Below the pieces are notes generated by a model, which worked only from the letters and a program-made list of their open reading frames with translations, had not been told where the DNA came from and made no database searches. 55,157 nucleotides of DNA. It comes from a virus (taxonomy: Duplodnaviria > Heunggongvirae > Uroviricota > Caudoviricetes). The stretch spans positions 1 to 55,157 of IMG/VR virus record IMGVR_UViG_2721755660_000006; one strand, 5' to 3'. The position numbers and the translations under genes were made by a program. Shown one piece after another: positions 1 to 55,157 of this stretch. Numbering within the stretch: position 1 is the stretch's first letter; each line of letters begins with the position of its first letter.

Positions 1-1446
1 ATGAGTATGTCATCCATACCGTCGTCCTCCCAATCCGGGAAGCTCTATGGCTGGGTCGAAAGAATTGGTAACAAGGTTCCCCATCCTTTTTTGCTCTTTA
101 TCTATTTGATAATCGTACTCATGGTGACGACGGCAATTTTGTCAGCCTTTGGCGTCAGTGCGAAAAACCCGACCGATGGTACGCCGGTGGTGGTGAAAAA
201 CCTGCTCAGTGTGGAAGGATTACACTGGTTTTTACCCAATGTGATTAAAAACTTTAGCGGTTTTGCTCCACTTGGAGCGATCCTGGCGCTGGTTTTAGGT
301 GCCGGCCTAGCGGAGCGCGTCGGCTTACTGCCAGCGCTAATGGTTAAAATGGCATCGCATGTTAATGCCCGCTACGCCAGTTATATGGTGCTGTTTATTG
401 CTTTTTTCAGCCACATTTCTTCCGATGCGGCGTTAGTGATCATGCCACCGATGGGTGCGCTGATTTTTCTGGCGGTGGGCAGGCATCCAGTTGCAGGTTT
501 ACTGGCCGCCATTGCAGGCGTAGGTTGCGGCTTCACGGCTAATTTACTGATTGTCACAACCGACGTGTTGCTGTCGGGGATCAGCACGGAAGCGGCGGCT
601 GCGTTCAATCCGCAAATGCACGTCAGTGTAATTGATAACTGGTATTTTATGGCCAGCTCCGTAGTCGTTCTGACGATTGTTGGCGGCCTGATAACCGACA
701 AAATCATCGAGCCACGGTTAGGTCAATGGCAGGGAAACAGCGATGAGAAACTGCAGACATTGACCGAAAGTCAGCGTTTTGGTTTACGCATAGCAGGTGT
801 CGTATCGCTACTTTTTATTGCTGCGATCGCGCTGATGGTGATCCCGGAAAACGGGATATTGCGCGATCCGATTAATCACACCGTGATGCCATCACCCTTT
901 ATTAAAGGTATCGTGCCACTAATCATTCTTTTTTTCTTTGTGGTTTCGCTGGCTTATGGCATCGCTACCCGCACAATTCGACGTCAGGCGGATTTACCGC
1001 ATTTAATGATTGAACCGATGAAAGAGATGGCGGGATTTATCGTGATGGTTTTTCCCCTCGCCCAGTTTGTCGCCATGTTTAACTGGAGCAACATGGGGAA
1101 ATTCATCGCCGTGGGGCTGACCGATATACTTGAAAGTTCAGGGCTTAGCGGCATCCCGGCGTTTGTCGGTCTGGCGTTGCTTTCCTCTTTCTTATGCATG
1201 TTTATTGCCAGCGGTTCCGCAATCTGGTCGATTCTGGCCCCCATTTTCGTACCAATGTTTATGCTACTTGGCTTTCACCCGGCATTTGCGCAAATCCTCT
1301 TTCGTATTGCCGACTCATCCGTATTGCCTTTAGCGCCGGTATCTCCTTTTGTTCCACTGTTTCTTGGATTCCTGCAACGCTACAAACCAGACGCAAAACT
1401 GGGTACTTACTATTCGTTAGTCTTGCCCTATCCGCTTATCTTTTGA
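1..1446 (+). CDS. abgT: AbgT-family p-aminobenzoyl-glutamate transporter (host gene, ORF starts at window position 1)
   Basis: 481-aa polytopic membrane protein; N-terminus MSMSSIPSSSQSGKLYGWVERIGNKVPHPF recognised as E. coli AbgT from memory; stop lies 70 bp before the attL core. Confidence 0.85.
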   Translation: MSMSSIPSSSQSGKLYGWVERIGNKVPHPFLLFIYLIIVLMVTTAILSAFGVSAKNPTDGTPVVVKNLLSVEGLHWFLPNVIKNFSGFAPLGAILALVLGAGLAERVGLLPALMVKMASHVNARYASYMVLFIAFFSHISSDAALVIMPPMGALIFLAVGRHPVAGLLAAIAGVGCGFTANLLIVTTDVLLSGISTEAAAAFNPQMHVSVIDNWYFMASSVVVLTIVGGLITDKIIEPRLGQWQGNSDEKLQTLTESQRFGLRIAGVVSLLFIAAIALMVIPENGILRDPINHTVMPSPFIKGIVPLIILFFFVVSLAYGIATRTIRRQADLPHLMIEPMKEMAGFIVMVFPLAQFVAMFNWSNMGKFIAVGLTDILESSGLSGIPAFVGLALLSSFLCMFIASGSAIWSILAPIFVPMFMLLGFHPAFAQILFRIADSSVLPLAPVSPFVPLFLGFLQRYKPDAKLGTYYSLVLPYPLIF

Positions 1447-35996: not shown

Positions 35997-36186
35997 TGTC
36001 GTTACTCCGCCCGTAAATATGAACCGGCTCAATTGGCACGGCTGGCAATTCACCTTCGTTTAATGCGCTCGCCATACCCAATACCAAACGCGCTTCAGCA
36101 CCAGTGACTTTCTTACACCATGCACCGCCTGTTTTATCTTCAAATAAGATAACGGCAAACTGATCGTTTATTTCCAGCTTATCCAT
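35983..36186 (-). CDS. Hypothetical protein
   Basis: 67-aa ORF. Confidence 0.4.
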   Translation of the reverse strand: MDKLEINDQFAVILFEDKTGGAWCKKVTGAEARLVLGMASALNEGELPAVPIEPVHIYGRSNDNENT

Positions 36187-36914
36187 TATTCACCCCGCGT
36201 CACTCGTTTAATTTCGTTGTCAGCCCGCGCCTCTTCTTTGAACAATTCAGCAATGGCGTCTTCATAGAAAGCCCGGTATTTCTTCCACCATGTTGATCGG
36301 CTTACCGGGAAAACAAGCTGATTAACCGCCTGCCGGACAAGATCTACAGGGAAACGCGAGTACCCACGCCCGCCGCAGTGCTGGCATGTTTTGAACACTG
36401 GCATTTCCGCCGCCTCGCTGGCTGCTTTATCCGGTACTTCGCCACGGCCCTTGCACCGCTGGCAATGGTTTTTAACGTAGCCTTTGCCGCCGCACCGTGC
36501 GCAAATTGTTGATGTGTATTTGCAATATGGATTTGGTAAATGCCCGTGACCGCCGCACTTAGGGCAAACTTTTTCGGTCGCTGCACTCTGGCAGTAATCC
36601 CGAAACGCGAAAACGGCAACAAGAATAATAAGTCCATTGCGCTGATCCTCGTTTAACTCCATCACGTATTCGTAATCTTTTGCCATCGATTTTAAGCGGT
36701 CTATAAGCAACGACACGGCTTTATTTTTTTCAGCTTGCGATAGCTCCATCTTTCCCAAAAAAGCGCTATATCCAAGCTCTACGCGCGATTGCGCCATACC
36801 CGCAGCGGTTAGCGCATCCGTCGTATTAAGAGCGCCCGGGGACGTGCCCCGGCTTTCGTCAGATAATCGCGGTGATTTAGGAAAGTGGAATTTTAGAATG
36901 GATTCTAAATTCAT
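36186..36914 (-). CDS. DnaJ-type zinc-finger protein; candidate late-gene antiterminator (Q-like)
   Basis: 242 aa with four CxxCxG(K/R/H)G repeats (CPKCGGHGH, CARCGGKGY, CQRCKGRGE, CQHCGGRGY); located after the NinG/RusA nin-like genes. Confidence 0.4.
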   Translation of the reverse strand: MNLESILKFHFPKSPRLSDESRGTSPGALNTTDALTAAGMAQSRVELGYSAFLGKMELSQAEKNKAVSLLIDRLKSMAKDYEYVMELNEDQRNGLIILVAVFAFRDYCQSAATEKVCPKCGGHGHLPNPYCKYTSTICARCGGKGYVKNHCQRCKGRGEVPDKAASEAAEMPVFKTCQHCGGRGYSRFPVDLVRQAVNQLVFPVSRSTWWKKYRAFYEDAIAELFKEEARADNEIKRVTRGE

Positions 36915-38293: not shown

Positions 38294-38452
38294 AATGCTC
38301 TCTCCTTTTCAGGTGATTTCTACGCATTTCAGCGCTGCCGGATTTTTAAAGAGCATTTTGTTTGCTTGAAGTATACAAAATGGATACGTGCTAACAAGGT
38401 GTAAAGCGCCATTATGTGACATTCATCACACAATGACGCCATTTTGTAAACT

Positions 38453-39217
38453 TCAGTCCGGCAAAACGCGGTTGAGCGTAGTACGATTGATGGCCCGGTC
38501 GTTAGCCAGGAATACAGCACGGGCGAAGCCACGCGGCGTTAGTGAGCGGATCATCTTTGTTCGCTTTGATTTTCCGCCTAACTTCGCGTGCTGCTTACTG
38601 TCTTCCCATTCATCTGGCATCGGCACAGGACGGAATAGCGGCTGCTTAAATCCATTCCCGCACCAAATACAAGTTTTCTTCGTGTAGGCGTCGCGGTCGG
38701 CAATGTATTCCGGGAAAGCGGGATGCTTATCATCTTCCGGCAGGTAGCCACCGTAAGCGCACGGATTGAAGATAAAATCCGGTTTACGCCATAACGTTGA
38801 CAGTGCGCCCACCGGATTTTCCACCATCCACGGCACGTTATGCATATTCGCCAGTTTTTCTACCAGTTTTGCGTTATGCGCCGCCTTCACCTGGAAGTCA
38901 GGGTCTTTTTTCCGTTTATCAGCGAACCAGCGAGCGCCTGAAACGGCGAGATTGTCGCATGGAGGAAAGCCCAGGATAATGTCAGGATCTGGATATACAG
39001 ACAATTCAGGGGAGAACATTACCAGAAAATGGCTATCAATCCAGACGTTAACATATTCAATATTTGGATGAATTATTTTTACCCCGTCATAATCACCGTG
39101 ATTAGCGCCGTCATAGTTGAAGCAATAACATTTATAACCAGCGTCCGCCCAATCTTTAACGGCGTACCCGCTGCCGTCATACAGCGACCACACCACCCAA
39201 TTTCTAATCCCGCTCAT
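38453..39217 (-). CDS. Putative DNA cytosine-5 methyltransferase-like protein (short form)
   Basis: 254 aa; motif-like segments YDGSGYA, GFPPCDNLAVSG (Pro-Cys) and MVENPVGA (ENV-like). Confidence 0.5.
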   Translation of the reverse strand: MSGIRNWVVWSLYDGSGYAVKDWADAGYKCYCFNYDGANHGDYDGVKIIHPNIEYVNVWIDSHFLVMFSPELSVYPDPDIILGFPPCDNLAVSGARWFADKRKKDPDFQVKAAHNAKLVEKLANMHNVPWMVENPVGALSTLWRKPDFIFNPCAYGGYLPEDDKHPAFPEYIADRDAYTKKTCIWCGNGFKQPLFRPVPMPDEWEDSKQHAKLGGKSKRTKMIRSLTPRGFARAVFLANDRAINRTTLNRVLPD

Positions 39218-39759
39218 TTCCTACCCTCAAACGTGAAGTAGCGGCGCATGATGATAGTAATCACCGTTACCGCTGCCATTTTTGAGATGAATTGCATAGC
39301 TGATATTTCCGGCATAAATGCCATAAACGATAGCGTCGGGAAAATTAACGCATCACCTATGGCGGACGCTATATTTGCAGGCCAACGTTTAGAATCAAAG
39401 TCACCAGGCAAAACCCGGTAAACGCCGCCAGAAATAAGCGCACCGGAAACAACCGCGACAAATGACGCGATCGCCACCATTCCGGCGTCGTAATTTATCA
39501 GCACAGTGATTGCGCCAGCGGCGGCGCATGTTGTAGCCGACCATTTCAGGCCGCCGTCATATAACAGGAGGTCACGGATCATCATATTGACACACACGGC
39601 GGCTACCGTGGTGATCGGAATTACCCACGGGCCGCAATGATTAACAATAAGATTGATGATCACAAAAACGGCGACATAAACGCAGGCTAATAACCTGTCA
39701 ATTGTCACCCTTTCCATTTGGATCGTACCTCTTATCATGAATACATTCTGATCTGTCAA
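39214..39759 (-). CDS. Integral membrane protein
   Basis: 181 aa with about five hydrophobic helices. Confidence 0.55.
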   Translation of the reverse strand: MTDQNVFMIRGTIQMERVTIDRLLACVYVAVFVIINLIVNHCGPWVIPITTVAAVCVNMMIRDLLLYDGGLKWSATTCAAAGAITVLINYDAGMVAIASFVAVVSGALISGGVYRVLPGDFDSKRWPANIASAIGDALIFPTLSFMAFMPEISAMQFISKMAAVTVITIIMRRYFTFEGRK

Positions 39760-40210
39760 ACCTCAAATCAAGCCGATTAGTGACCTCACCGTTAAACTTC
39801 ACAGTAGGAATTATTTTCCCCGGAATAATCGACGGGTCCGGCCCTAAAATATCAGAGTAAAGTTTTATCCCTCCGCTGATAGGGAGATCAAAAACAGCCT
39901 GTTTCTTTCTTTGTTCTTCCTCCCGCTCCGTTAATATTTGCTCCGCTTTTAGCGCGTTATAGCTAATCAAATCAATTAACGTGTCTGTCGGATCGCTGTT
40001 ATTGCTCAAAATGGCTTCTAATCGCGCCTCCTTGAGACAAATTAGCAGATCCCATACATCAAGCGGGGTTAAATCTGCCCCCTTCTTAGCGTTGTAAATA
40101 GTGGCTATTTTTGGCGCTGATTTTTCCTCTTTTTTGTCGTAGCCGTTTTGTTTACCTCTTTGCTCTATGGTTTCCGCTGCAAGCCTTAATAAGTCTGTTG
40201 CCTTAGTCAT
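39698..40210 (-). CDS. Hypothetical protein
   Basis: 170-aa ORF overlapping the downstream gene start by about 60 nt in another frame. Confidence 0.45.
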   Translation of the reverse strand: MTKATDLLRLAAETIEQRGKQNGYDKKEEKSAPKIATIYNAKKGADLTPLDVWDLLICLKEARLEAILSNNSDPTDTLIDLISYNALKAEQILTEREEEQRKKQAVFDLPISGGIKLYSDILGPDPSIIPGKIIPTVKFNGEVTNRLDLRFDRSECIHDKRYDPNGKGDN

Positions 40211-40743
40211 TGTTCTGAACCTCTCGCATATAGCTCTTTACGTGTTATTTGCGTGAAAATACATTCATGTCTGCAACGTGGATGCCAGATCAAGAACAAG
40301 CTCCCTTTATTGTTTCCACTTGCTGGTTTCCCTGTCGCAGCATTGATAAACGCCAGCCGCCCGCGCGTGATTAATCGGCATTCGTTTGCCGTCTCCACGC
40401 CGTTCATAAACCAGCTAACAGAAATGTCAGCGGGCAATAACATTACGCATCCGATATGGTTTCGGCTGTGTTCAAGCGCCGCTTTATCAACGAATGGCCC
40501 CGGATTAGAATATGGTGGATTAAGCCAGACATACTCACCAGGCATTGCCACCGCTCCCCACGGATAATGCAACGTGTCCATTTCTTCTGTTATATATCGC
40601 GGGATTAATGCGTTTGCCTTGTTTGCCGCCACGTCCGCGACGAATTCGAATTCCCGATCCATTCCTCTAAAAACGGGTTTTGGCGTTTGCCATAAGTCTT
40701 TTATTTCTTTCGGCGTATGGCTGCCGCCGTAATCATTTTTCAT
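40207..40743 (-). CDS. Phage-type DNA N6-adenine methyltransferase (Dam family)
   Basis: 178 aa; N-terminal WQTPKPVF and catalytic NPPY (LNPPYS) typical of small phage Dam methyltransferases. Confidence 0.8.
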   Translation of the reverse strand: MKNDYGGSHTPKEIKDLWQTPKPVFRGMDREFEFVADVAANKANALIPRYITEEMDTLHYPWGAVAMPGEYVWLNPPYSNPGPFVDKAALEHSRNHIGCVMLLPADISVSWFMNGVETANECRLITRGRLAFINAATGKPASGNNKGSLFLIWHPRCRHECIFTQITRKELYARGSEQ

Positions 40744-53746: not shown

Positions 53747-53964
53747 TGGATAAGATCGGGACAATACTTATTAACCGTGAGCAAGTGCAAAAAATGTTAG
53801 GCGGGCTTAGCAAGTCCGCCTTTTTTAAGCTCGTTAAAAAATGGAAAGAAGCGGGAACTCCTTTCCCTGAACCTGTAAAGGGGATGCCAGCATTAAAGCG
53901 CGGGGGATCTCTTTACCGTTATCAGGACGTTATTTCATTTTGTAAATCTATGGGCTTCATGTAA
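53746..53964 (+). CDS. AlpA/Xis-like small DNA-binding protein (candidate excisionase)
   Basis: 72 aa; LINREQVQKMLGGLSKSAFFKLVKKWKEAGTPFPEPVK pattern; adjacent to integrase, 3-prime ends overlap convergently. Confidence 0.45.
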   Translation: MDKIGTILINREQVQKMLGGLSKSAFFKLVKKWKEAGTPFPEPVKGMPALKRGGSLYRYQDVISFCKSMGFM

Positions 53965-55121
53965 TAATCAGCCAGTTTATTCATCGCCTCGATTTGCTCC
54001 CTCACATAATCATACTGATCATATATAGCCATCATCCCCGCCAGTTTATGACCTAAAACCTTTTCGGCTACATGCGGCGCAACGCCAAGCGCTGAAAGGT
54101 TTGTCCTTACAGTGCGGCGCAAGTCGTGACACGACCACGGCTCGCCGCCCATCCTTAGCATCAAATCCCTTGCGGCTGTTTTCGGCACGCTCCTGTCTAC
54201 CGCTTCATCCCTTCCAGAAAGCACGGGAACGAAGATAAAATTAAAGCCGTGCAAATCCATAGCTTCACGCAATAAACCTACGCTAACGGCGGATAAACCG
54301 CGTTTAAACTCGTTTCTGTTCTTACTCAATGCACCCGGCACGGTCCACACACAGTTATCAAGATCGAAATGCTCGCGCCTTGCGTTTGTTAGTTCGCTTG
54401 TTCTGCATCCGGTGAATATAATCAGCTTCATCAATATCTGATTTAGCCGCGCCATTTTTGAACTGTCTATAATGCTGATTAGATGGTGAATCTCTTGTAT
54501 TGATAAGACGCGTTTTCTTTGCGCCGGGTTTTTGCCTACGTCTTTCACGCGTAGTAATGATATGTCGTCACGCTCCACGCGGCGGCGGCGCATGGCATAT
54601 TTTATCACCGCCTTCATCCTGTTTAAGACTATCCCGGCCTGAACCGGCGCGCCACCATTAGCTACCTTTCTAAAAATCCCCTCCCACATTATGGAGTCCA
54701 TATCATCGACGATATAGCTACCGCATGGTCTGACAATGTGCTTACTTAGCATCGCATCGACTTGCTTATAGTTGACCATGTTTCTTGCCTGCGGTGATTC
54801 CATGTACTCCCTAACAATATCTTCAATCGTTGCCCGTGTCGTAACGCGTGACAAGTTCATTCTTTTTACGATCGATGGATCTCGTCCTGAGTTTAAGACT
54901 TCCTTATGCTCCGCCACCGCCGCGCGGGCTTCTTTGAGTGTTATTTCTCCGTATGTGCCGATCTTCATCCGTCGAGGCTTGCCGTTGAATCGGTAGCGAT
55001 ACTGGAAAGATATAACTCCGCGCGGGCTTATCCTGGCAGACAATCCGCCCGCGTCCGGGACTTCTTCCGGGCCGTCATATGGCTTGCCGTGGATGTTTCG
55101 TAATTTGGTATCTGTAAGCAT
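53922..55121 (-). CDS. int: Tyrosine integrase (P4-type family)
   Basis: About 399 aa from MLTDTKLRNI; C-terminal catalytic region with HDLRRT and LGH motifs; attR core immediately upstream of the start. Confidence 0.9.
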   Translation of the reverse strand: MLTDTKLRNIHGKPYDGPEEVPDAGGLSARISPRGVISFQYRYRFNGKPRRMKIGTYGEITLKEARAAVAEHKEVLNSGRDPSIVKRMNLSRVTTRATIEDIVREYMESPQARNMVNYKQVDAMLSKHIVRPCGSYIVDDMDSIMWEGIFRKVANGGAPVQAGIVLNRMKAVIKYAMRRRRVERDDISLLRVKDVGKNPAQRKRVLSIQEIHHLISIIDSSKMARLNQILMKLIIFTGCRTSELTNARREHFDLDNCVWTVPGALSKNRNEFKRGLSAVSVGLLREAMDLHGFNFIFVPVLSGRDEAVDRSVPKTAARDLMLRMGGEPWSCHDLRRTVRTNLSALGVAPHVAEKVLGHKLAGMMAIYDQYDYVREQIEAMNKLADYYMKPIDLQNEITS

Positions 55122-55123
55122 AA

Positions 55124-55145
55124 TTTGGTCACTATTTGGTACACA
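55124..55145. repeat. attR core (second copy of the 22-bp direct repeat)
   Basis: Identical to 1517..1538; located 3 bp upstream of the likely integrase start codon (MLTDTKL at 55121). Confidence 0.8.
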
Positions 55146-55157
55146 CATTTTACGCAT

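Follow-up and report, generated by a model that had tools for sequence, protein, structure and literature searches.

The characterized Dam enzymes of phages T1, HP1 and VT-2 target GATC, and E. coli hosts normally have a Dam and a Dcm of their own, which methylate GATC and CCWGG, respectively. Among the compact Dcm-like enzymes of coliphages, that of phage K42/KarlJaspers produces 5mC, as determined by LC-MS, and is the trigger of retron Ec86 (bioRxiv 10.1101/2023.08.16.553469). Phages also encode yhhQ, which occurs in 7-deazaguanine clusters such as those of CAjan and PEAT2, and DNA modification was not measurably altered when the gene was deleted from CAjan (PMC7544227). The temperate mEp021/mEpimmI phages, in whose deposited genomes a pair of genes discussed below is already annotated as methyltransferases, form a published group: in mEp021, the corresponding region is an early operon, nutR1-nutR2, antiterminated by the N-like protein Gp17, with nutR2 placed downstream of the cytosine methyltransferase gene (PMC11893012).

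We analyzed a stretch of 55,157 nucleotides (IMG/VR record IMGVR_UViG_2721755660_000006; hereafter, the window), which is a prophage, as evident from the host gene abgT at its left end and an integrase at its right end; the same two genes rule out a phage genome with circular permutation and terminal redundancy. The ORF list places four co-oriented, overlapping minus-strand ORFs at 38453-40743 (Table 1), with overlaps of 4 bases between the Dam and DUF6378 genes, 20 bases between the DUF6378 and VUT genes, and 4 bases between the VUT and C5 genes. Over its 2.3 kb, the region matches Escherichia phage MagusPhagus at 99.9% identity and six mEp phages at 86-88%, and, of 5426 complete E. coli genomes, 34 carry the block. 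Prophages and a relative whose proteins are just 53-65% identical retain the order Dam, DUF6378, VUT, C5. All four genes have family matches far beyond chance, and all four are under purifying selection relative to mEp021 (dN/dS of 0.06 for Dam, 0.20 for DUF6378, 0.035 for VUT and 0.09 for the C5-like gene). We consider it likely that the block is a lineage-conserved part of the early operon of a temperate coliphage of the mEp021/mEpimmI type, integrated here as a prophage, and that its four genes form a mosaic in which each is useful on its own, not one machine.

Table 1. Predicted features of the block and of the element that follows it (positions in the window).
Feature	Position	Strand	Matches and remarks
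Phage Dam-family DNA N6-adenine methyltransferase, 178 aa	40207..40743	-	PF05869, TIGR01712, phrog_111
DUF6378 protein, 170 aa	39698..40210	-	PF19905, phrog_9871
Divergent VUT/YhhQ-family polytopic membrane protein, 167 aa	39214..39717	-	phrog_4899; relatives match PF02592
Compact "Dcm-like" DNA C5-cytosine methyltransferase, 254 aa	38453..39217	-	phrog_757; C5 motifs
nutR2-like element	38310..38360	-	Directly downstream of the cassette; boxA-like TGCTCTTTAAAAA at 38355-38343, then an invariant A-rich segment

A 60-nt segment at the nutR2-like element is identical across the window, mEp021 and three prophages, in which the flanking genes differ by 3-25% in nucleotides. The sequence TGCTCTTTAAAAA is what we take to be a boxA, from its likeness to the rrn/lambda boxA consensus. 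Scanning the cassette for promoters returned seven sites against 6.1 expected from shuffled controls, i.e., no excess, and terminator-like sites were somewhat commoner than in shuffles (10 versus 4.1 +/- 1.8). Upon induction or infection, the block would probably be transcribed as a single unit whose genes are translationally coupled. The preliminary description had assigned these genes to an early leftward operon: the early operon agrees with what is published for mEp021 (PMC11893012), but "leftward" reflects only the orientation of the window.

The first gene of the block encodes a protein that matches PF05869 over its full length (E = 7.2e-51; 172.7 bits against a cutoff of 28.1), the TIGR01712 equivalog (140.1 bits against a cutoff of 97.05) and phrog_111 (E = 1.3e-63). 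Both motifs on which its initial recognition as a Dam-family N6-adenine methyltransferase had been based are present, WQTPKPVF at aa 18-25 and the catalytic NPPY at aa 75-78, and, with both profiles above their cutoffs, that recognition holds. With the phage Dam family (T1, HP1 and VT-2/933W-type) it shares the full-length profile match above curated cutoffs, the small size, the NPPY motif, the solitary status and the early-gene location, and nothing notable sets it apart. Judged by these matches, it is a genuine member of the phage Dam family and would methylate adenine at N6, with GATC, by analogy to its characterized relatives, as the likeliest target.

The last gene of the block encodes a protein matching phrog_757 (E = 1.1e-87), in which we located motif I (YDGSG, aa 13-17), motif IV (FPPC, with Cys87), motif VI (ENP, with Glu133), a KK pair at 180-181 and motif IX (RSLTPRG, aa 224-230). 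The preliminary description of a short C5-methyltransferase-like protein with Pro-Cys and ENP segments was borne out by alignment: Cys87 and Glu133 are intact, FPPC and ENP are invariant across 33 homologues, Cys87 is in register with the cysteine of DNMT3B and M.HhaI, and YDGSG (family consensus FDGSG) is matched in the alignment by DLFAGLGG in M.HhaI and by SLFDG in DNMT3B. The protein has the catalytic-domain fold of C5-methyltransferases in a compact, DNMT3-like form. Compared with the canonical enzymes of PF00145 (M.HhaI, M.HaeIII and E. coli Dcm), it is shorter by about 70-220 residues and shows neither a sizeable target-recognition domain, motifs VIII and IX being separated by only about 40 residues where one would sit, nor a clear motif X (GN[AS]V), for which the candidate is an invariant "AN" near the C-terminus, its Asn239 a putative counterpart of HhaI Asn304. 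It falls below the Pfam threshold, with no match to PF00145 even at E = 10, and 12 of its 33 relatives match that profile at E <= 1 (best, 1.3e-6).

Its closest known kin are the Dcm-like enzymes of Drexlerviridae and other coliphages (e.g., that of K42/KarlJaspers), which have the same compact DNMT3-like fold, whereas the copy in the window resides in a temperate phage of the mEp021 type. It is 58% identical to the product of a 711-bp gene of Warwickvirus tonijn, whose C82, E128, K175 and K176, the catalytic and binding positions found necessary in K42 Dcm, correspond to C87, E133, K180 and K181 here. The variable loop, however, reads DSKQHAKLGGKS in the window and DNPGWAKTGG in tonijn (K42-like) and mEp021, such that target specificity is not simply transferable: because QHAKLGGKS stands between motifs VIII and IX in place of NPGWAKTGG, and because of a 13-residue C-terminal extension, the target sequence may differ from that of K42-type Dcm. 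On the strength of its motifs, we regard the protein as a real compact C5-cytosine methyltransferase with intact catalytic residues, from a family of which one member has been assayed biochemically; it would methylate cytosine at C5 via Cys87, its target being probably, although not certainly, CCWGG-like. A carboxymethyltransferase of the CmoX type (PMC12783734) is disfavored by FPPC in place of SPPC, by the invariant Asn in place of the Cx-SAM-binding Arg, by the lack of a CmoA or amide ligase among the genes inspected, and by the tested relative that makes 5mC.

Neither methyltransferase has a cognate endonuclease gene beside it, as the preliminary description held and as would be required for type II restriction-modification: the only nuclease-like ORFs within about 3 kb of the block, by the ORF list and profile searches, are NinG and RusA, and the neighbors are small hypothetical ORFs, NinF, NinG, RusA and Q. 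Target sites of both presumed specificities are over-represented in the window, not avoided: GATC occurs 265 times (186 +/- 13 expected) and CCWGG 123 times (62 +/- 7 expected), a pattern that fits methyl-protection without deciding the matter. The most probable role of the two solitary enzymes would be to keep fast-replicating phage DNA fully methylated, which would protect it from methylation-sensitive restriction enzymes irrespective of the Dam and Dcm status of the host, and anti-restriction self-methylation, as proposed initially, would be plausible. The Dcm-like enzyme may come at a known cost, in that the tested K42 member of its family sets off retron Ec86.

Because E. coli hosts normally already carry Dam and Dcm, the protective benefit is not obvious, and the two enzymes might instead serve the physiology of the phage, through avoidance of mismatch repair or SeqA, the timing of replication or packaging, or the control of gene expression. 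In favor of this, additional protection would be needed only in unusual hosts when the host itself methylates GATC and CCWGG, and the excess of both sites in the phage resembles that in its host. However, no sequence feature separates a physiological role from anti-restriction, the two being non-exclusive, and the widespread occurrence of the Dcm-like family in virulent phages of many enterobacteria fits general defense evasion; we hold it unlikely that physiology takes precedence over anti-restriction.

Between the two methyltransferases lies a polytopic membrane protein, as originally described, but its length is 167 aa and not 181: the longer reading requires a TTG at 39759, whereas the ATG at 39717 is the start annotated in GenBank for the near-identical phage and used by the 167-aa homologues. 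A hydropathy scan found hydrophobic segments along the whole 167 aa, and the mEp021 record notes six transmembrane segments. The identity of this protein had gone unnoticed: it is a VUT/YhhQ homologue, the usual phage partner of which, the 7-deazaguanine transglycosylase DpdA, is absent here. It matches phrog_4899 (E = 5.4e-47) and is 30-35% identical to phage genes annotated as "VUT family protein"; its direct match to Vut_1 is weak (E = 0.17; 12.7 bits against a threshold of 27.2), yet full length, and in an exhaustive HMMER search 43 of its 47 relatives matched PF02592. In addition, the profile of its family aligns with E. coli YhhQ (hhalign E = 1.1e-5), and family-conserved residues are kept (N22, G29, R48-D49, A82/A84/S85, N115, D122 and F126-P127). 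These relationships identify the protein as a divergent homologue of VUT/YhhQ, the queuosine-precursor transporter, which is the new point of this analysis. Relative to E. coli YhhQ (COG1738, Vut_1), it is a homologous polytopic membrane protein that is about 55 residues shorter and, taken alone, below the Pfam cutoff. No other gene of the four is as strongly constrained (dN/dS 0.035-0.046), with 96-99% amino-acid identity across phages in which neighboring genes are far more divergent.

As in CAjan and PEAT2, the yhhQ-like gene is phage-encoded and situated among genes of DNA metabolism, but its neighbor here is a C5-methyltransferase and no DpdA, FolE, QueD, QueE or QueC was found in the window. 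Searches for DpdA in the window by tblastn with two phage DpdA-like proteins (best E = 0.065) and by an HMM built from six such proteins against all 430 ORFs (best E = 2.4) were negative, and a Pfam scan covering the other large ORFs found no TGT, QueC, QueD, QueE or FolE; these searches turned up no DpdA elsewhere in the window that would explain VUT. Nor does the annotation of the near-identical phage list any preQ0 pathway gene. From its homology and its usual phage context, the protein would most probably import a 7-deazaguanine base, e.g., preQ0, preQ1 or queuine. Because the phage has neither DpdA nor preQ0 pathway genes, VUT probably does not feed modification of the phage DNA, and a more probable, if speculative, role would be that of an auxiliary gene, for example one feeding the Tgt/queuosine-tRNA pathway of the host during infection.

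The other intervening gene, described at first as a 170-aa unknown, has the position and length given then, but its DUF6378 domain had been overlooked: it matches PF19905 at aa 7-90 (E = 1.9e-7) and phrog_9871 (E = 7.5e-19). Its N-terminal domain, about 100 aa long, is conserved and helical, its C-terminal tail is hypervariable and overlaps the VUT start, and in relatives the protein can be shorter (135 aa and 99 aa). The alignment of close E. coli homologues was too shallow, the AF2 model was of low quality (pLDDT 47, with four predicted helices), and a profile search of the PDB returned only noise. The protein is a small helical domain with no recognizable catalytic signature and no assignable function, and the PHROG label "phosphofructokinase" on related families is unsupported here.

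The absence of DpdA is at odds with the company that VUT genes keep elsewhere. A DpdA-like transglycosylase gene abuts VUT in 11 of the 13 other lineages examined, and a DpdA-like gene (phrog_887) adjoins VUT in all nine non-mEp phage genomes inspected as well as in two metagenomic contigs. VUT could accordingly be viewed as the leftover of a former VUT-DpdA module in which DpdA was replaced by the Dcm-like gene, with no present role in 7-deazaguanine metabolism and perhaps co-opted for some other membrane function, such as the modulation of lysis timing or superinfection. Such a history would agree with the divergence of the mEp-type protein below the Pfam Vut_1 threshold and with the dispensability of yhhQ in CAjan; nevertheless, the low dN/dS and high amino-acid identity given above are those of an actively maintained protein, and the retained family residues argue for a preserved transporter architecture, so that we find this history improbable.

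Alternatively, the block might constitute one DNA-hypermodification module, in which VUT imports a base or cofactor precursor that the C5-like protein, DUF6378 or both install or process on the phage DNA, in replacement of VUT-DpdA chemistry. In the mEp-type lineage, the C5-like gene lies directly downstream of VUT and overlaps it, which is the place of DpdA in most other phages, and in the nearest non-mEp VUT lineage, VUT is two genes from a PF01555 DNA methyltransferase and not beside DpdA. The four-gene order kept down to about 53-65% protein identity, the constraint on VUT, and the precedent of CmoX, a C5-methyltransferase homologue with a non-methyl cofactor (PMC12783734), point in the same direction. 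However, 1516 phage records contain a member of the C5-like family and almost all of them (about 1500 genomes) have no VUT gene, indicating that the C5-like enzyme works without the transporter; the 58%-identical relative has the catalytic residues described for K42 Dcm, a maker of plain 5mC; Asn239, and not the Arg of Cx-SAM users, is invariant at the putatively equivalent position; and DUF6378 is small, helical and devoid of a recognizable catalytic signature, all of which renders a single module very improbable. Equally hard to credit is an undescribed DNA- or tRNA-modification strategy that ties VUT to the adjacent DNA-modifying genes in the absence of DpdA, for example with an imported 7-deazaguanine or other base being used by an unrecognized enzyme (with DUF6378 as a candidate) or by Tgt/Dpd machinery of the host.

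The mosaic reading of a conserved early operon is the one that we prefer, although the tight linkage, the translational coupling and the strongest constraint on VUT could instead denote some functional link still to be understood. Because solitary Dam- and Dcm-like enzymes are common in phages, and because both genes were already annotated in this phage group, the main finding adds little: most of the biology of the region is already known, the one modest puzzle being a constrained YhhQ-like transporter without DpdA. There are consequences for the biology of these phages all the same. Since the K42 Dcm-like family triggers retron Ec86, strains that carry this retron, such as BL21, should sense induction of the prophage or infection by the phage, and the exchange of the loop among members of a single phage group may be a sign that target specificity is diversifying or that retron sensing is being evaded. 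If VUT imports queuosine precursors, temperate coliphages may manipulate the queuosine-tRNA status of their hosts; should its function be another, what phage VUT genes do in general would have to be reconsidered, the deletion of yhhQ from CAjan having already been without effect on DNA modification.

All four co-oriented open reading frames that the preliminary description had placed at 38453-40743 are present on the minus strand, with no endonuclease at the block, as it also held. Neighboring genes overlap by 4 bases at the Dam/DUF6378 and VUT/C5 junctions and by 20 bases at the DUF6378/VUT junction, which suggests translational coupling; for the membrane protein, GenBank and the homologues use the ATG start. 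The window itself holds an integrated prophage together with some flanking chromosome: its left end carries a near-full-length gene for the host's AbgT transporter (PF03806, 3e-197), a tyrosine integrase is its last gene, and the remainder is colinear with a permuted genome of Escherichia phage MagusPhagus.

Features of the methyltransferase block and its surroundings in the window
Feature	Coordinates	Strand	Remarks
Host AbgT transporter	1-1446	+	near full length
Q-like late antiterminator	36186-36914	-	
nutR2-like element	38310-38360	-	
boxA-like TGCTCTTTAAAAA	38355-38343	-	within nutR2-like element
C5-like protein	38453-39217	-	254 aa
Variable loop of C5-like protein	38570-38650	-	aa ~190-215
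VUT/YhhQ-like membrane protein	39214-39759	-	181 aa from TTG; 167 aa from ATG at 39717
DUF6378 protein	39698-40210	-	170 aa
C-terminal tail of DUF6378 protein	39698-39910	-	aa ~100-170
Dam	40207-40743	-	178 aa
Tyrosine integrase	53922-55157	-	last gene

Across its 2.3 kb the block shares 99.9% identity with MagusPhagus and 86-88% with mEp021 and a further five mEp phages, members of the Nus-dependent, non-lambdoid 'mEpimmI' group (PMC11893012). Among 5426 complete E. coli genomes it turns up in 34, chromosomally in every case. In E. coli N921 (NZ_CP176484.1, 2620737-2623354) the cassette copy has ~330 bp extra and contains an annotated 'HNH endonuclease signature motif containing protein'. The block is part of the early operon antiterminated by the N-like Gp17 (gp17, erf, ssb, abc2, block, ninF, ninG, rusA, Q); its 'leftward' direction reflects only the orientation of the window. 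The Q-like protein matches PF03589 (1e-30) and also has a zinc-finger segment of DnaJ type, CXXCXGXG, whose PF00684 match (1e-6) does not reach the cutoff. The published nutR2 is immediately downstream of the cytosine methyltransferase gene (PMC11893012), a position matched by the boxA-like TGCTCTTTAAAAA, which together with the next ~45 nt shows no difference between the window, mEp021 and three prophages (100% identity), whereas the flanking genes differ among these by 3-25% of nucleotides. Gene order within the block is kept down to about 53-65% protein identity, and dN/dS indicates purifying selection on all four genes.

Judged by its sequence, the first gene encodes a textbook phage Dam: the motifs ascribed to it are found at aa 18-25 (WQTPKPVF) and aa 75-78 (NPPY), and it matches PF05869 over its full length (7e-51), the NCBIfam equivalog TIGR01712 (140 bits; cutoff, 97) and phrog_111 (1e-63), with no related solved structure detectable by sequence. 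Characterised phage members of the family, those of T1, HP1 and VT-2, are specific for GATC, which by analogy would also be the target here.

The C5-like protein itself has no match in Pfam, NCBIfam or PDB sequences; it matches phrog_757 (1e-87) and belongs to a family of 2371 clusters and 1516 phage records, mostly of about 225-260 aa. PF00145 matches 12 of 33 aligned members (best, 1.3e-6), and across this alignment motif I (FDGSG; YDGSG in the window protein), motif IV (FPPC, Cys87), motif VI (ENP, Glu133), a KKTC segment (Lys180-181), motif IX (RSLTPRG) and the C-terminal Asn239 are invariant, so that the catalytic residues, whose absence would have spoken against a methyltransferase, are in place. 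Motifs I and IV fall in register with DNMT3B in a profile search of the family, and with M.HhaI in hhalign. The AlphaFold model is confident (pLDDT 86), and its top Foldseek matches are DNMT3A, DNMT3B and DNMT1 (E 2e-6). In Escherichia phage LHE71 (187-920), the phrog_757-type gene shows up as two overlapping ORFs, which may represent a frameshift or a sequencing error; this T1-like phage also carries a VUT-DpdA pair.

According to a preprint (10.1101/2023.08.16.553469), retron Ec86 responds to a 711-bp 'Dcm-like C5 cytosine methyltransferase' from the Drexlerviridae phage K42, which yields 5mC on msDNA as detected by LC-MS; its activity required a CCTGG site, and its C82A/E128A/K175A/K176A mutant is inactive. 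A homologue in Warwickvirus tonijn is exactly 711 bp long and keeps Cys, Glu, Lys and Lys where the mutant was altered. It shares 58% identity with the window protein (E 3e-97), which thus belongs to an experimentally supported family. Its only strongly variable internal segment lies between KKTC and motif IX, where the target-recognition domain is expected: the window, MagusPhagus and 22 of 32 other family members have the loop type 'DSKQHAKLGGKS', whereas mEp021, other prophages and the K42-like tonijn enzyme have 'DNPGWAKTGG'. This difference amounts to an exchange, inside one phage group, of the putative target-recognition segment, and K42-like specificity is therefore not confidently transferable to the window protein, whose C-terminus is also 13 residues longer.

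PF19905 matches aa 7-90 of the DUF6378 protein. Its C-terminal 70 residues are hypervariable, overlap the VUT start and are missing from 135-aa and 99-aa relatives; this tail may contribute nothing to the protein's function. Structure prediction gave a low-quality model (pLDDT 47, with four helices), and profile searching against the PDB returned only noise. In a Faecalibacterium phage, a DUF6378 gene clusters with a 225-aa cytosine methyltransferase, a PF05869 Dam and ThyX (PMC13432834), hinting that DUF6378 is recurrently linked to nucleotide- or DNA-modification genes.

The membrane protein matches Pfam Vut_1 over its full length only below threshold (E 0.17). However, an exhaustive HMMER search with its family profile recovered 259 cluster representatives, of which 47 were sampled and 43 of these match PF02592; the broader family profile aligns over 121 columns (E 1.1e-5) with YhhQ, the queuosine-precursor transporter of E. 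coli. By tblastn, 14 non-mEp phage records contain relatives of 28-36% identity, and several of these carry the annotation 'VUT family protein'. Within the block, constraint is strongest on VUT: its dN/dS is 0.035 when compared with mEp021 and 0.046 with a prophage, while the remaining genes range over 0.06-0.23.

VUT directly abuts a DpdA-like gene (phrog_887, 'queuine tRNA-ribosyltransferase') in each of the nine distinct non-mEp phage genomes that were inspected (PEAT2, Opt-719, LHE71, RCIP0319, Phc, AB3P2, Lg3, Tbat1_6 and ECO111 5-P) and in two metagenomic contigs; phage yhhQ genes within 7-deazaguanine clusters are known (PMC6884629, PMC7544227). Two lineages lack this neighbor: in one, on a 128-kb contig, VUT adjoins a DNA ligase, and in the other, the P0133 lineage, a PF01555 N6/N4 DNA methyltransferase follows two genes downstream of VUT but is missing from one of three metagenomic contigs. 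The P0133 lineage, the closest non-mEp VUT relative, is a second instance of VUT near a DNA methyltransferase. The window contains no DpdA-like ORF (best E 0.065 by tblastn, 2.4 with a six-member HMM), nor TGT, QueC, QueD, QueE or FolE among its annotated genes or other large ORFs. VUT in the window is a functional gene under active maintenance that lacks its customary partner.

As far as sequence can tell, the earlier picture of two orphan methyltransferases flanking a membrane protein is largely right, its functional side, an anti-restriction role, being what we infer. As stated, the finding is already known from a characterised family and deposited annotation: the records of mEp021 and MagusPhagus label the two end genes adenine and cytosine methyltransferases, and that of mEp021 labels the third a 'putative membrane protein'. 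Both GATC (265 sites, against 186 +/- 13 expected from dinucleotide-preserving shuffles) and CCWGG (123 against 62 +/- 7) are over-represented in the window. Early in lytic growth, the two enzymes would add methyl groups to adenine N6 and cytosine C5 of phage DNA, so that a genome in rapid replication stays fully modified and withstands methylation-sensitive restriction, at the cost that the Dcm-like enzyme could make the phage detectable by retron Ec86.

A real functional coupling among the block genes is very unlikely. About 1500 phage genomes have the Dcm-like family without VUT, and the usual partner of VUT is DpdA; the four genes are therefore best seen as a mosaic and not as a single machine. 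VUT most probably imports a 7-deazaguanine base; without DpdA, it might, speculatively, be an auxiliary gene, perhaps serving host queuosine-tRNA rather than supplying DNA modification, and this orphan YhhQ-like transporter is the one point that merits a follow-up experiment.
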